Positions 10,233-64,000 of a DNA stretch of 64,000 nt are shown here, one piece after another (the stretch's first letter is position 1; every line of letters starts with the position of its first letter). Origin of the DNA: an uncultured bacterium (lineage in GTDB: Bacteria > Babelota > Babeliae > Babelales > Babelaceae); NCBI GenBank assembly GCA_963824495.1, contig CAWGPQ010000008.1, positions 56,642-120,641 of the forward strand, in the 5' to 3' direction. The translations under genes were made by a program, and so were the position numbers. The notes under the pieces are model-generated. The model was not told the DNA's origin. It made no database searches and saw nothing but the letters and a program-made list of their open reading frames with translations.

Positions 10233-11235
10233 ACCACCTAATGGCGTGGCGAAAGCTTCAGCGCTACTAGTGCCTGCCACTCTTGCACTTGAAAGCTTGC
10301 TAGAAAACTTATACATGGGATATAAAAGGGGAGATATAAAAAGCGAACTCGTGCTTGGCTCATTGGCGCTGGCTGTTTTAGAAAAGATTATCCTTGACTA
10401 CGGTCTGCCAGCCTTCAAGAGACCACAGGAGAAAGAAGCAGACCTCTTTGCTTGTGATCAATTGATCAAGATTCGCCGAGAAGATCTGGTTGTTCGCCAG
10501 ATAGCATCGGACCTTCTGAGCAACAACCGGTCACATGTTGAATTACAAGGGCCGTGGGCGGAAGCTTTGGCAGCAAAGACACACCCAACCCCTCCTGAAG
10601 AGGCTCGCTATCTTATACAGTGTCTTAAAGAAAAAGGCTTTAAAGGAGCACTTACTCCCAAGTATAAGCACGTACTTACAAGATCGTTAGCCCTTGCTAA
10701 GCACAATACTATTGATGAAATCAGTAACGATATTCTTGCCAAACAACCGAGCATTGCAAAAGTATACAGTATAAGCGAGTCACTGATTATTGCAGCACAT
10801 GATGGTGACGAAGAAGCCGTTAAAGAGGCTCTTACTCAAGATGCTGATGTTAACCATGCCGATAAGAGTGGCTATACCGCACTTTTATGGGCAACCATAA
10901 TGAATCATATACCTATAGTCAAGCTGCTTCTGGAATATAAAGCTCATGTTAACCAGCCTGATAAGTTTGGCATTACCCCCCTCATGAAGGCAGCTCGTTA
11001 TGGGCACACCTCAATAGCTCAACTTCTCATAGAGCATAAAGCTGACGTTAACCAGACTGATTTTGAGAATGGACACAAAGATATAGTCAGGCTGCTTCTA
11101 GGGTATGGTGCTGACGTTAATGAAGCTAATAATGAGGGTGAAACTGCTCTTACATTAGCAACTAAATCTGGTCATTCTGATATAGTCGAGTTGCTTCAAG
11201 CAGCATTGACACTCACCAGCTTAAAAAGCAGGTGA
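10174..11235 (+). CDS. Ankyrin-repeat protein (start uncertain: 10174, 10183 or 10315)
   Basis: The C-terminal half has 4-5 ANK repeats (GYTALLWATIMNHIPIVKLLLEYKAHVN, GITPLMKAARYGHTSIAQLLIEHKADVN, ...). The ORF-track start overlaps the GH81 stop by 59 nt. Confidence 0.75.
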   Translation: MKKMAQHLIVHYLRSQQLLKPPNGVAKASALLVPATLALESLLENLYMGYKRGDIKSELVLGSLALAVLEKIILDYGLPAFKRPQEKEADLFACDQLIKIRREDLVVRQIASDLLSNNRSHVELQGPWAEALAAKTHPTPPEEARYLIQCLKEKGFKGALTPKYKHVLTRSLALAKHNTIDEISNDILAKQPSIAKVYSISESLIIAAHDGDEEAVKEALTQDADVNHADKSGYTALLWATIMNHIPIVKLLLEYKAHVNQPDKFGITPLMKAARYGHTSIAQLLIEHKADVNQTDFENGHKDIVRLLLGYGADVNEANNEGETALTLATKSGHSDIVELLQAALTLTSLKSR

Positions 11236-11446
11236 TTCTTGTTTCAGCAATATAGCCTACGAGAAAGATGCTTGGTTTTTGCATACTGTTACTCTCTTGC
11301 ATAGTACCTCGCAGGCCTCACATTGTCTTGTCTCCATAAGCTTTACTTTGGGAATGCCCTATTTTTAAATTTAAACAAGCAAAATAAAAGAGTAGATATG
11401 CAAAAGCAGGTCACGAATACTATCATACTATCGTAACCGATAACGA

Positions 11447-11858
11447 TTAGGCACCATGGGAAAACTGATTTAAAACAAGAAGCGCATCATTGAGCTTTTC
11501 TTCTTTCACCAAAATATAATTAGTATCATACGTAGATATAACAAATACCGGAATCGCCGATTCGGCCAATGGACCAAGAATTGTAGATAATATACCCGTT
11601 AAAGAAAAAGCAAGCGGGCCATTTACTTTTATAGCACGCCAGCTTTTTTCCACAGGTATAGTGTCAGGTATGGTATGAGGTATAGCATCCTGAGCACAAA
11701 CAATAGAAAGCTCGTCGTGCGTTTTGGTTATAGAGAAAAAGAGAAGGGCACAAAGCCCATGATGGCACTTCAGCAGCACTAGCAAGTCGACAGATGCCAA
11801 AAGTATCGGGTAATAACGAAAAAGTTAATTTACCACGAGATAGCCTAGGATTCATCAA
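11447..11858 (-). pseudogene. ACT-domain (ACT_7-like) small protein, split by a 1-nt frameshift
   Basis: ORFs 11664-11858 (LTFSLLPDTFGICRLASAAEVPSWALCPSLF) and 11447-11800 (FSITKTHDELSIVC...GPLAFSLTGILSTILGPLAESAIPVFVISTYDTNYILV) join into one ACT-like protein if one base is removed from the A5 run at 11736-11740. Confidence 0.65.
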
Positions 11859-11912
11859 AATTTCTCACAACAAGTTTAAAGCGGTTATTAAAGAGAGTAC
11901 TACAAATTAAGG

Positions 11913-12548
11913 CTAAACGCTAGAAAGTACCCGTTTAATTTCTGCTAATTCATGTGCTGTAATCGGACCTGGACCAAGCGCAGGTTGCCCAAGTGGTTCA
12001 GCTCTGATGGAAGAAATTAGCGTACCGCTCAGAAGTACCGATAAAACTATAACTTCAGCGAGAGTGAGCTTGGCTGCCCAAAACCGCCCTTCTTCCGATA
12101 CAAGAATTGCCCGAAGCTTCGCCCTGAGCTGCTCATCTGACTCACTTCTGTATTCGGTTTGTTCAGGTAATATAAGCTCAAGCAATCCGTTCAGTGCTCT
12201 ATTAACCAAAATCTGTGACTCAATCCATGTCTCTGGTTTTAACTGAATAGCTTCACTCGTGGGAACTATAATACCATGAAATACAAGTGGAGAAACAGTA
12301 TAATTAAGTACATAGGCAAGATATTCTGCTGCATACTGTACATAATCACCTAGCTTCTCTGGAATACCCTTTAGGCTAGTACGCACAGTATCAAGCCATT
12401 TTTGATCAAGCGATGATAAAGATGTAACGGTAGGTAGACTCGCAAGCTCTCTTAATGCATTATAAGAATAAAGTGCTTGCTTTTGATAGTATGTATGCGA
12501 AGGAACTTTTTGCAACAGCTTAAGGGCATTATCAAGGTCCTGAAGCAA
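11913..12548 (-). CDS. Hypothetical protein, YN.LREL family, C-terminal TM segment; start unclear (TTG)
   Basis: ALYSYNALRELASLPTVTSLSSLDQKWLDTV matches the repeat in 6653-7324. There is no in-frame ATG upstream. Hydrophobic LTLAEVIVLSVLLSGTLISSI lies near the C terminus. Confidence 0.5.
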   Translation of the reverse strand: MLQDLDNALKLLQKVPSHTYYQKQALYSYNALRELASLPTVTSLSSLDQKWLDTVRTSLKGIPEKLGDYVQYAAEYLAYVLNYTVSPLVFHGIIVPTSEAIQLKPETWIESQILVNRALNGLLELILPEQTEYRSESDEQLRAKLRAILVSEEGRFWAAKLTLAEVIVLSVLLSGTLISSIRAEPLGQPALGPGPITAHELAEIKRVLSSV

Positions 12549-61266: not shown

Positions 61267-62271
61267 TCAGCGCAGTGAGGTGAGATTAAAATAACTTTTC
61301 AACTCGGAATAACATGAAAATTTTTGAAGTTCAGTGTCATGTTGTATGAGCTTGTGGAGCAGGGTAAATTGCTGTGGTGCATGGGCAAAAACGTCAGCAA
61401 GTTCTTTAAGCCCCATTGCTACGCTGCTTTCATAGGCTGCAGCATTTTTATTGAAAAAATCAAGTGGATTACTCCAGTTAGGCTGCTCAAGATCAATGAG
61501 TGCTAATTTGTCATCGACAACCATAATATTACGTTTGATATTCCAAATACCAGCATGCTTAATACCTATAAAAAGATCGTGTATATCGTGCTCAGTGAGC
61601 GATGCTATAGCACGAGGGCAATCTTCCAGTACTATGCCCTTAAGTAGTTCCTGAATAATGATATAATTTTCATCTGCAACTTGGGTGGGCCTGTCTGGTA
61701 CATGAACAAGATAGGTGCGGGGTAACCGCAAACGTGTTAAAGCATAATGCTCAATAACCTCACTTAGCTTCAAATAATAAGCACTATGGCTTATAGTTTG
61801 GAAGGTAGAGTAATCAAAAAGGTGGTCAATTTCAGATACTGAGCACTGTTGGTTAAGTTTATTGTAATAGGCAAGAAGCGTATTCAATCTATTAACAGGC
61901 CCAGCTATTTTTACTATATAACGCTCATCTACAGGTAGCGTAAAAACATAATTCCATTTACTTACATTACTGATACCATATTCAGCAAGAAGAGCGTTAT
62001 TATATGCATGTTCTTTGTGAACCTCAGAAATAGGGAAATGACGTATTAGAAGGCGCATCATAAGGCTTTTATGGCAGGTAATCCATGTAAGCACATTTTT
62101 TTTAAGGGCAGCTGGTTGCTGTGGGGCAAGCTTAATGATATTCAGCTGGGTAATAGGTATGTTACGATACGTGGTATAAGTTGCCGTGTGCGTACGCCCA
62201 CTGTCGCCATCTATATCACCCATGAGCATAACACACATACTTAACCAAACAAAATAGTTCTTTTGACCCAT
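61267..62271 (-). CDS. Protein-kinase-like fold protein, catalytic Asp replaced (possible pseudokinase)
   Basis: RYIVKIAGPVNR (beta3 Lys-like), hinge-like YIIIQELL, loop IKHAGIWNIKRN and LALIDLEQ (DFG-like Asp). Collinear with 62455-63171, but His sits where the catalytic Asp is expected. Confidence 0.5.
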   Translation of the reverse strand: MGQKNYFVWLSMCVMLMGDIDGDSGRTHTATYTTYRNIPITQLNIIKLAPQQPAALKKNVLTWITCHKSLMMRLLIRHFPISEVHKEHAYNNALLAEYGISNVSKWNYVFTLPVDERYIVKIAGPVNRLNTLLAYYNKLNQQCSVSEIDHLFDYSTFQTISHSAYYLKLSEVIEHYALTRLRLPRTYLVHVPDRPTQVADENYIIIQELLKGIVLEDCPRAIASLTEHDIHDLFIGIKHAGIWNIKRNIMVVDDKLALIDLEQPNWSNPLDFFNKNAAAYESSVAMGLKELADVFAHAPQQFTLLHKLIQHDTELQKFSCYSELKSYFNLTSLR

Positions 62272-62454
62272 AGCTATTCTTTCTTTATTATCACAGACAC
62301 ATCACACGTCCTGCCATAGCGGTACTATACCACACCCTACCATGAACGTTAAGGCCAGGCAAAGAATTCCATTGAATTCAGTGAGAAAATTGATTTATTT
62401 TTAAAAATCTATATATTTCTAAGTAGATAAACAGCACTTGTGAGGATATCATTC

Positions 62455-63171
62455 ATGAAACTACAACAAACTTTTTTTATCACAACGGCATGTGTACTAC
62501 AGATCCTTCTCATTGCAGCAGATTGCTTACCAGTACCTATAAGTGATGCTCAATTAATCAACCAGCATATGCTCAAAAATAAGCAGGTATACGCAACATT
62601 GAGTAACTTGTTTATACGGTATCGTGATGCGCTTATAAAGAAAAGGGGTCTACCCAATAAAAACAGTATTCAGGAAACATATCTTGTTAATCCTGACTTT
62701 GAAGTATTGCATACACTAGGGTTTAAAAAAATGGGAGAAGGATCGTCCCCCGTTTTTGAGCACAACAAATTGCCCGGCTCAATTATTAAATTTGATGCAG
62801 CAGTTGAAAGACTCAAGGGGCTTAAACTCCTCAAAGAAGTTATACGCAAGAGAAAGCCCTCTATACCTATTGAGTTGCCTTCTAAAAATATAGTCCCGAT
62901 TCAGTTGAATAAGCAACTACATTACATTATTCTCGAGAAAAAATTAGCTTTGGTCCCCAATAATATACAAGCACTTAAGCATTCGCCGTTAAGGCCTCTT
63001 GCTGAAGTAAAGCAGGTTTTACAGGATGCAGGCTACTGTGATGCACATCCCGGCAATATTAAGAAAACCAAAAAGGGGTTTGCCATAATCGATACTGATA
63101 TTCGCAATTATAGTAGACCTGGCGATGCCTGTGGTGTGCGTGAGCTTGAATTAAAATTAGCACAGGCATAG
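62455..63171 (+). CDS. Minimal secreted protein-kinase-like protein
   Basis: ATG at 62455 with GAGGA upstream and leader MKLQQTFFITTACVLQILLIAA. Gly-rich LGFKKMGEGSSPVF, GSIIKFD (Lys), AAVERL (Glu), catalytic loop CDAHPGNIKK (D-x4-N) and AIIDTD (metal-binding Asp). The protein ends about 25 aa later. Confidence 0.6.
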   Translation: MKLQQTFFITTACVLQILLIAADCLPVPISDAQLINQHMLKNKQVYATLSNLFIRYRDALIKKRGLPNKNSIQETYLVNPDFEVLHTLGFKKMGEGSSPVFEHNKLPGSIIKFDAAVERLKGLKLLKEVIRKRKPSIPIELPSKNIVPIQLNKQLHYIILEKKLALVPNNIQALKHSPLRPLAEVKQVLQDAGYCDAHPGNIKKTKKGFAIIDTDIRNYSRPGDACGVRELELKLAQA

Positions 63172-63172
63172 T

Positions 63173-64000
63173 TTAGAAATGCATGCTCATATAATTAGAA
63201 AGAGCAAATGTTAGGCTTTTGCCCAAAACACGTTCTACGCCTTTACCGATAGGAAATTTTCTATAGGGTGAAAAATACGGATCAAGATCTGTTCGTATAC
63301 CCAAGAGAGTTTCAGCACTATACACGCCAAGTGCCGCAGCCCAGGGTAATCCCGTAGCACCACTTATATAATACACTGAAGGATTTTCCCGATCTCGGCC
63401 TGCTAGAGGAGCCAGATCTTTACTAATTCCGATCAAGCCAGGCCACATATACTCAAAGTTTATCGCAATGGTGGGAAACATACGAGTCCAGTAACGTACC
63501 AGCTTTCGGAATATAGTACGATCGTTATGCGATTCATGAGCAGCAAACATAGTAAGCAAACTGCCGCCTCCAAGCAATAACCTGTTACTCCCTGTCAGGC
63601 GATAATACTGGTAAACTATATCAGTATCCCAGACCATTAAGGGCTTATCAGGAAAAATCATAGGTACTTGCTTATCAGAAAGCGGCGATGATAGAAGAAG
63701 AAATGTTTGTGCGTGATACACATCTAAGCTTAATTTGCCAAGCTCAGGAAGGAAGCGATCGGTACAAACAACAACATAATCAGCGGTAACGTTTCCGAAA
63801 GGTGTTTGGGCACTATGAGCGTCAATTTTTACAACAGGTGTTTCTTCGTAAACCTGAATACCAAGATCTTTCAATGCATGCTTAAGACCCTGACAATAAC
63901 GATATGTGTTGATACCAAACGTATCGGTATAGCGCATGGCACCATAATACTTAGATGATCCGAGCACAGCGTGAAGATCCTGCGCGTTATCATACAGCAC
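63173..64000 (-). CDS. FAD-dependent oxidoreductase (DAO family), C-terminal part; N terminus lies beyond the window
   Basis: Frame is open to nt 64000. ISGATGLPWAAALG and the general DAO-like C-terminal pattern. Confidence 0.55.
   Translation of the reverse strand: MLYDNAQDLHAVLGSSKYYGAMRYTDTFGINTYRYCQGLKHALKDLGIQVYEETPVVKIDAHSAQTPFGNVTADYVVVCTDRFLPELGKLSLDVYHAQTFLLLSSPLSDKQVPMIFPDKPLMVWDTDIVYQYYRLTGSNRLLLGGGSLLTMFAAHESHNDRTIFRKLVRYWTRMFPTIAINFEYMWPGLIGISKDLAPLAGRDRENPSVYYISGATGLPWAAALGVYSAETLLGIRTDLDPYFSPYRKFPIGKGVERVLGKSLTFALSNYMSMHF

Follow-up and report, generated by a model that had tools for sequence, protein, structure and literature searches.

The locus and its two genes

We analysed a 64,000-nucleotide stretch of DNA (the window) from an uncultured bacterium of the Babelaceae (assembly GCA_963824495.1, contig CAWGPQ010000008.1, positions 56,642 to 120,641 of the forward strand), in which two intact, divergently oriented open reading frames (ORFs) encode the kinase-like proteins P0001, on the minus strand, and P0002, on the plus strand (Table 1). 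An earlier reading of the sequence (the original prediction) had described them as a pair of secreted minimal kinase-like proteins, one with its catalytic Asp replaced. The two ORFs and the 183 nt between them were confirmed, and the motifs quoted for each protein are in place (GEGSSP, IIKF, AAVERL, DAHPGN and IIDTD in P0002; IVKIAGP, YIIIQELL, HAGIWN and ALIDLE in P0001). The leader peptide assigned to P0002 was also found, with a second one on P0001, each recognized as a hydrophobic 10-mer.

An alternative GTG start for P0002 lies at 62440. Because a GAGGA Shine-Dalgarno sequence sits 8 nt 5' of the ATG at 62455, the ATG is preferred. A lipoprotein signal was considered for P0002 and rejected, since the residue preceding Cys24 is Asp and there is no fit to a lipobox.

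Table 1. Features of P0001, P0002 and the region between them, in window coordinates. Family counts refer to ~190 cluster representatives, in P0002 numbering; A1 is the subfamily A alignment.
Feature	Position	Strand	Detail or basis	Family counts
P0001 gene, 334 aa, predicted exported kinase-like protein of a derived subfamily without the catalytic Asp	61267..62271	(-)	ORF; AF2; Foldseek	
P0001 N-terminal leader, MGQKNYFVWLSMCVMLMG	62218..62271	(-)	hydrophobic 10-mer, Kyte-Doolittle mean 2.34	
P0001 K121 in VKIAG, equivalent of the beta3 Lys	61909..61911	(-)	invariant in A1; within model strand 118-122	
P0001 35-residue insert (AGPVNR...DYSTF), beta3 to helix C, specific to subfamily A	61801..61905	(-)	alignment and model; G124, N127 and R128 invariant	
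P0001 H162, where the family has an invariant helix-C Arg	61786..61788	(-)	R in the other 15 A1 sequences; aligned to P0002 R119	
P0001 degenerate catalytic loop, W243-N244-I-K-R-N248	61528..61545	(-)	hhalign pairs W243-N244 with C195-D196	
P0001 D260-L-E262-Q-P-N265, metal-binding Asp motif of subfamily A	61477..61494	(-)	D, E, Q, P and N all invariant in A1; aligned to IDTD	
Divergent intergenic region, 183 nt	62272..62454	.	Shine-Dalgarno 62442-62446; promoter-like hexamers 62390-62417(+) and 62352-62324(-)	
P0002 gene, 238 aa, predicted exported minimal kinase-like protein; catalytic residues canonical, C-lobe truncated	62455..63171	(+)	ORF; AF2; Foldseek	
P0002 N-terminal leader, MKLQQTFFITTACVLQILLIAAD, Sec-type signal or signal anchor	62455..62523	(+)	hydrophobic 10-mer, Kyte-Doolittle mean 2.72; helix 2-23 in AF2 model	
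P0002 Gly-rich loop GEGSSP	62734..62751	(+)	between model strands 90-93 and 100-103	G94: G 110/170
P0002 K112, beta3 (ATP-anchoring) Lys	62788..62790	(+)	ends model strand 109-112	K 177/181
P0002 R119, family-invariant Arg, first turn of helix C	62809..62811	(+)	model helix 116-133	R 186/186
P0002 K144				175/189
P0002 catalytic loop D196-A-H-P-G-N201, Brenner-type D-x4-N	63040..63057	(+)	aligned to D...N of LicA 4r77 and LanKC kinases	D196: D 121/187, S 56/187; N201: N 188/188
P0002 I-I-D213-T-D215, metal-binding Asp motif (DFG / IDxE equivalent)	63088..63099	(+)	conservation; aligned to LicA IDWE	D213: D 186/187; T214: T 184/187; D215: D or E 176/187

The upstream neighbours of the pair are two large ankyrin-repeat paralogues, and the convergent gene beyond P0002 encodes an FAD-dependent oxidoreductase of the DAO family. 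The P0002 stop codon (63169-63171) and that of the DAO-family gene (63173-63175) are a single base apart, with no terminator-like structure between them. GC content at the locus (~0.40-0.41) is the same as in the remainder of the window. The source genome comprises 1.33 Mb in 21 contigs and is 97% complete.

Fold, homology and the wider family

AlphaFold2 (AF2) models were built from homologue alignments of each protein, with a predicted local distance difference test (pLDDT) score of 86.4 and a predicted template-modelling score (pTM) of 0.84 for P0001, and 88.3 and 0.80 for P0002. When the models were compared with the PDB using Foldseek, the top-50 matches of each were kinase-fold proteins only, in agreement with the fold originally proposed. 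Matches of P0001 included RIOK3 (E 6.6e-4), PknB, p38, CK2, NleH1/2 (target-normalised TM 0.43-0.52) and OspG, while those of P0002 included Rv3197, VRK2, JNK, PknI/PknB, YopO, OspG (TM 0.47), WbdD and APH(2''). Against predicted viral structures, P0002 gave matches down to E 4e-6, mostly annotated kinases (phage T7-like and giant-virus) together with some unnamed proteins.

The order of secondary structure in both models is the protein kinase-like (PKL) layout, with an N-lobe beta-sheet and helix C, helix E, the catalytic loop, short strands and the metal-binding Asp. In P0002, beta1 (90-93), the Gly-rich loop, beta2 (100-103), beta3 (109-112), helix C (116-133), beta4 and beta5 are followed by helix E (179-192), the catalytic loop (193-201), two short strands and D213. 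All four residues sought as marks of a PKL enzyme are present in P0002 (K112, D196, N201 and D213), and P0001 has them in part (K121, N248 and D260, but N244). As judged from these models, P0001 and P0002 are members of the PKL fold superfamily.

A BLASTP comparison of P0001 with P0002 was not significant (E 0.055). Alignment of the two family profiles with hhalign gave a probability of 98.2% and an E-value of 5.5e-14 over a span from beta4 to the metal-binding Asp, which upholds the collinearity that had been claimed for the two proteins. A single ORF of the related genome G032 was matched by both queries. On these profile data the two proteins are distant homologues, with a likeness far beyond chance. 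Subfamily A (P0001-like) corresponds to subfamily B (P0002-like) with an added insert of 35 residues between beta3 (V-K121-I-A-G) and helix C (Y-Q-T-x-S-R). A recent tandem duplication was rejected as the origin of the pair, since P0001 and P0002 fall in different tree clades.

An exhaustive profile search recovered 1,305 cluster representatives, clustered at 50% identity, with E <= 1e-3; at a cut-off of E <= 1e-10 the number was 458. The homologues, 16 for P0001 and 49 for the P0002-family profile, were labelled 'hypothetical' without exception and had no Pfam domain. The family is represented in 124 of the 261 genomes of Dependentiae, spread over 79 of 145 genera, and its genes commonly stand in tandem with others of their own type, up to six in a row. 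Arrays with five to six members are mostly of a Ser-for-Asp (G-H-C/I-S-T) type (G036:C1:143145-147160; G062:C3:56735-60759; G034:C4:642453-645030). A word-indexed search with P0002 alone returned only P0002, and a profile scan of the genome contigs returned only a locus in genome G019. This locus holds the nearest relatives of P0002, two tandem genes encoding 298 and 340 aa. Beside them lies a gene for an exported protein of 1,098 aa (L029:58-3354) with ~25 repeats of a ~40-residue 'SVAFSPDGSYLATAN...VTIF' unit; the repeats are beta-propeller-like, and the protein ends in a C-terminal transmembrane anchor.

We found no description of the family in the searchable literature, and protein kinases go unmentioned in the main genome papers on Dependentiae, where ankyrin proteins and signal-peptide ORFans are listed. 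As far as its sequences tell, the family is undescribed and unnamed, with a signature made up of the beta3 Lys, an invariant helix-C Arg, D/S-x4-N and I-D-T-[D/E]. Three features set it apart: the invariant helix-C Arg in the absence of a conserved Glu, the I-D-T-[D/E] motif, and the combination of Sec leaders with large clades that lack the catalytic Asp.

Typical members read H-Y-D-L-H-P-G-N ... I-I-D-T-D/E. P0002 keeps every residue that is invariant in the family, and its catalytic loop reads C-D-A-H-P-G-N, without the Lys of Ser/Thr kinases and without the Brenner His. The core kinase elements attributed to P0002 therefore stood for the Lys, D-x4-N and the metal-binding Asp and fell for the helix-C Glu: E118 was rejected in that role, as it is Glu in only 40 of 186 members and directly adjoins the invariant R119. 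The best candidate for such a Glu is position 124 (E in 95/186). Two Cys residues of P0002, C195 (63037-63039), which directly precedes the catalytic Asp, and C226 (63130-63132), are invariant in an alignment of the three-member P0002 subclade and could form a disulfide if the protein is exported.

In P0001, the sequence HAGIWN (239-244) aligns with DAGYCD (191-196) of P0002 and not with DAHPGN. The profile alignment pairs A-G-I-W-N244 with A-G-Y-C-D196 and D260-L-E with D213-T-D, so that N244 occupies the position of the catalytic Asp, with the catalytic-loop Asn kept as N248, one residue nearer than in P0002. The original prediction was thus right that the Asp is absent, although the residue in its place is N244 rather than His. 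Because members of subfamily A have S, N, D or Q at the position following the conserved Trp, the absence of Asp is a trait of the subfamily and not a lesion of this gene. P0001 retains all 16 invariant columns of subfamily A, but none of the other 15 aligned members shares its His in place of the invariant Arg.

Reconstruction on the core tree gave Asp as the ancestral state of the catalytic position. The Ser clade (49 members) is monophyletic and very strongly conserved, with the motif G-H-C/I-S-T-x3-N, while the Asn/Ser clade of subfamily A represents a separate loss of Asp, nested among Asp-bearing members. On this tree, loss of the catalytic Asp is derived and occurred in at least two separate events.

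The adjacency of the genes raises the question of whether they form a dedicated kinase/pseudokinase heterodimer that is co-regulated from the shared intergenic region. The genes are divergent, and their defects look complementary, since P0002 has the catalytic residues with almost no C-lobe and P0001 has a full C-lobe without the catalytic Asp. Separate back-to-back promoters at 62390-62417(+) and 62352-62324(-) are plausible from the sequence, but the number of promoter-like sites in the region (7) is at chance level (7.3 expected from shuffling). The same pair was sought in related genomes. P0002-type genes were found elsewhere only in G019, as the two tandem copies, and no subfamily A gene was detected in that genome; subfamily A genes occur in ~20 of 61 relatives as same-type tandems, and among the listed coordinates of relatives none lies beside a P0002-type gene. 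The two proteins are also very distant paralogues from different clades. Since the pairing was not found elsewhere, the clades differ and the promoter-like sites are no more frequent than expected, the co-regulation suggested earlier and a heterodimer are both unsupported, and we regard a dedicated pair as very improbable. The adjacency is seen only in this genome and is not that of a conserved functional pair.

Predicted export and activity, and possible targets

Single-sequence and small-profile searches of Pfam, NCBIfam, PDB and PHROGs with P0001 and P0002 gave nothing useful. A profile of 111 Asp-bearing members (A5) reached the choline kinase LicA (4r77) among solved structures at E 5.6e-4, aligning the D-x4-N ... 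IDT[DE] of the family with H-I-D-L-V-P-E-N ... L-I-D-W-E of LicA. The second-best matches were LanKC kinase domains (E 2e-3), and weaker ones were NEK1, DYRK1A, APH, ABC1, spectinomycin phosphotransferase and YtaA/CotS. Sub-threshold Pfam ABC1 and APH matches of canonical members fall exactly on the catalytic loop. Because the LicA/LanKC alignment and the ABC1/APH matches coincide there, D196, N201 and D213 of P0002 are the predicted catalytic base, Mg-binding Asn and Mg-binding Asp.

N-terminal hydrophobic leaders were detected in 12 of 15 members of subfamily A and 134 of 186 members of subfamily B, compared with 0/16 and 5/187 when the same test was applied to an internal control window. 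The genome also encodes two secretins and two E-type ATPases of type II secretion (T2SS-E-type), so that release in two steps is plausible. Chromulinavorax, a cultured member of the Dependentiae, has signal peptides on 44% of its proteins, and its host-manipulation apparatus is considered to consist of secreted ORFans and ankyrin proteins (PMC6561590).

A family member of 255 aa without a leader is encoded on a 302-kb IMG/VR contig (IMGVR_UViG_3300048574_000478; L033:3971-4735), with the motifs K...R...H-Y-D-M-H-A-L-N...I-I-D-T-D. The contig also carries a P9 minor-capsid domain of nucleocytoplasmic large DNA viruses (NCLDV) and RNase III, with a cobalamin adenosyltransferase nearby, and is by this gene content a probable giant virus. 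Viral scans with subfamily A and with the P0002 subclade were negative, and no other viral contig was recovered when the viral homologue served as query. If these proteins act in the host cytoplasm, which supplies ATP, the bacterial ones should need a leader and the viral one should not, as is observed.

Dependentiae are intracellular parasites of protists. The explanation that we rank first, and consider somewhat probable as a whole, is that both genes belong to one large exported PKL family, expanded in Dependentiae and with at least one probable giant-virus member, in which P0002 is a host-delivered, protein-directed phosphotransferase and P0001 is pseudokinase-like. P0002 would most likely be an ATP- and Mg-dependent phosphotransferase, given the retained K112, D196, N201 and D213-T-D215. 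It may be exported by Sec and then released, through a secretin-dependent route or in vesicles, into the host cell, where ATP is present. Its substrate would somewhat more likely be a host protein than a small molecule or glycan, because protein kinases, minimal effector and phage kinases among them, make up most of the fold neighbours, a leader is missing from the viral homologue, and the neighbouring genes encode secreted ankyrin proteins. P0001 is most likely non-phosphorylating and pseudokinase-like, because the catalytic Asp is not conserved in subfamily A (N244) and the invariant Arg is lost (H162), and would most likely still bind nucleotide or a partner through K121, N248 and D260-x-E262.

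Several findings weigh against this explanation. The best sequence match, LicA, is a small-molecule kinase. Foldseek TM-scores were modest (0.2-0.5), as expected for a domain that is very small and divergent, and a single contig underlies the giant-virus link. The tail of P0002 beyond D213 is just 25 residues long, compared with a family median of 85 (rank 6/183), and position 124 of its helix C is Lys, where the commonest family residue is Glu; with such a tail and K124, P0002 may be inactive or decaying. Finally, because the Ser-for-Asp clade is strongly conserved, loss of the Asp does not amount to loss of function in the family, and P0001 could still be an enzyme.

The match to LicA leads to the alternative that we rank second, that the family, including P0002, consists of APH / choline-kinase-type kinases acting on a small molecule, lipid or glycan of the envelope or the host. 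The APH, spectinomycin phosphotransferase and YtaA/CotS matches fit this possibility, as does the motif H-Y-D-L-H-P-G-N ... I-D-x-E, which is of Brenner / choline-kinase type without the Ser/Thr-kinase Lys. The glycan kinase WbdD and APH(2'') are likewise among the fold matches of P0002. In addition, one member on an ENA metagenome scaffold, P0183 (L030:5001-6512), has a mini-kinase-like domain (5-222) fused to a GT2 glycosyltransferase (251-381) and shares a well-supported clade with P0002 (support 0.98). Its gene overlaps a PIG-L deacetylase gene and is preceded by an ATP-grasp gene and a gene for a giant WD40 protein. Another member, P0118, adjoins a gene for a GlmU-like nucleotidyltransferase. 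However, these are a single fusion and a single neighbourhood, and P0001 and P0002 have no conserved sugar-pathway context, with ankyrin genes and the DAO oxidoreductase as neighbours. Protein kinases, among them minimal ones from effectors or phages, form the majority of the fold matches; enzymes with similar motifs (LanKC, RIO and HopBF1-type) act on peptides or proteins, and the periplasm would be without ATP. We consider a small-molecule, lipid or glycan kinase possible, at a clearly lower probability than a protein-directed one.

The short tail of P0002 bears on a further alternative, that one or both genes are functionless, decaying remnants, with P0002 truncated at the C-terminus and P0001 stripped of essential residues. 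The original prediction noted that P0002 ends without a C-lobe, which is correct for this protein. Because the nearest relatives are longer and the family median tail is 85 residues, the missing C-lobe helices are a trait of the P0002 copy and not of the family. There is no space for a lost 3' part before the convergent DAO gene begins, and a short tail with that gene on its 3' side means that decay stays a candidate explanation. His at the invariant Arg of P0001 points the same way, as do the fast turnover of the family and internal stop codons in several copies of other genomes.

The sole paralogue of P0001 in the genome (contig C20, ~11200-12290, minus strand; L004:1444-2530; 43% identity) also fits decay. 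It is split into a leader-bearing ORF of 109 aa and a kinase-like ORF of 261 aa, which lie in different frames with an overlap of 29 nt; either a frameshifted pseudogene or a mistake in the assembly is indicated. It too lacks the Ser-Arg. This split paralogue is flanked by a GT4-like glycosyltransferase ORF on one side and a LOG-like ORF on the other. Against decay, the ORFs of P0001 and P0002 are both intact and have leaders, P0002 has a good Shine-Dalgarno sequence, both proteins gave confident AF2 folds, and the residues invariant in the family (P0002) or in subfamily A (P0001) are all kept. Decay of one or both genes therefore seems unlikely to us.

Returning to the host-directed phosphotransferase family, a bolder extension is that Dependentiae and at least one protist giant virus share host-directed mini-kinases with a non-canonical active site, in which an invariant helix-C Arg replaces the Lys-Glu pair, the metal motif is I-D-T-[D/E], and the Ser/Asn clades are not dead. 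We hold this only tentatively. If true, the Ser/Asn clades, including the P0001 subfamily, would direct some other nucleotide-dependent chemistry at host targets, or would work on those targets as regulated partners. That a contig of a probable giant virus encodes a leaderless homologue hints that genes have been exchanged by two kinds of protist parasite, and that the target lies within the host cell. More broadly, a recognisable enzyme fold can now be assigned to >1,000 'hypothetical' secreted proteins, with specific residues offered for mutation. The family also provides a natural series, with Asp, Ser or Asn at the catalytic position and with or without a C-lobe, in which to ask about minimal kinase size and pseudokinase-like roles.

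Comparison with known kinase families

Among solved proteins, only LicA of S. pneumoniae, from the APH / choline-kinase group (PF01633, PF01636), was matched by sequence at E < 1e-3, over ~70 residues. The likeness lies in the Brenner-type H-x-D-x4-N followed by I-D-x-E; canonical family members have both, and P0002 has both minus the His. Pfam APH scored 12-13 bits on family members against a cut-off of 23.2. Enzymes of this group differ in being cytoplasmic and larger, with a helical, substrate-binding C-lobe that is absent from P0002. The kinase domains of the class III lanthipeptide synthetases (LanKC; 8sao, 9wj0) align M-G-D-L-Q-P-A-N ... I-I-D-F-E-T with the catalytic loop and metal motif. 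The similarity is confined to this catalytic segment, and these domains lie inside multidomain cytoplasmic enzymes of 860 residues.

The best target-normalised TM-scores (0.43-0.52) were to NleH1/NleH2 of E. coli and OspG of Shigella (PDB 4lrj, 4lrk, 4q5e, 4bvu). These share a very small core (~160-200 residues), a reduced C-lobe and the lack of an activation segment, and are delivered to a eukaryotic host. No sequence match places the P0001/P0002 family with them, and they are type III substrates without Sec leaders, whereas the present family has Sec-type leaders, the invariant helix-C Arg, I-D-T-[D/E] and Asp-less clades.

RIOK3 (8zdc) gave the best Foldseek E-value for P0001 (6.6e-4), with a TM of only 0.31. 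RIO kinases are, like the present proteins, atypical small kinases in which additional helices separate beta3 from helix C and the metal-binding Asp is followed by a residue that is acidic or polar. They keep the catalytic Asp and act intracellularly in ribosome maturation without being exported, whereas P0001 and P0002 carry leaders, and neither protein had a Pfam RIO1 (PF01163) or NCBIfam match. For Kdo/WaaP (PF06293) and Bud32, no Pfam or NCBIfam match was found at E <= 10 for P0001 and P0002, or at E <= 1 for the 16 and 51 members scanned. HopBF1, which was not itself used as a yardstick, was absent from the top-50 fold matches and from the 60 listed profile matches; HopBF1-type kinases are delivered by type III secretion, and P0001 and P0002 have Sec-type leaders instead. 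The kinship with HopBF1, RIO, Bud32 or Kdo-kinase raised by the original prediction thus found no sequence or family evidence. Membership of the eukaryotic protein kinases (ePK; PF00069 / PF07714) is also not indicated, as there was no Pfam match even at E <= 10, the Lys of HRD-x-K-x2-N is missing, and the tail of P0002 is so short.

The ROPK proteins of Toxoplasma and the FIKK proteins of Plasmodium are large, lineage-specific expansions of signal-peptide-bearing kinase-fold proteins in intracellular parasites, many without catalytic residues. They are canonical ePK derivatives of eukaryotic origin, whereas the present family is bacterial and viral, much smaller, and not ePK by sequence. Under the bolder extension considered above, the family would represent, in bacteria, what the secreted kinomes of ROPK and FIKK proteins are in those parasites.

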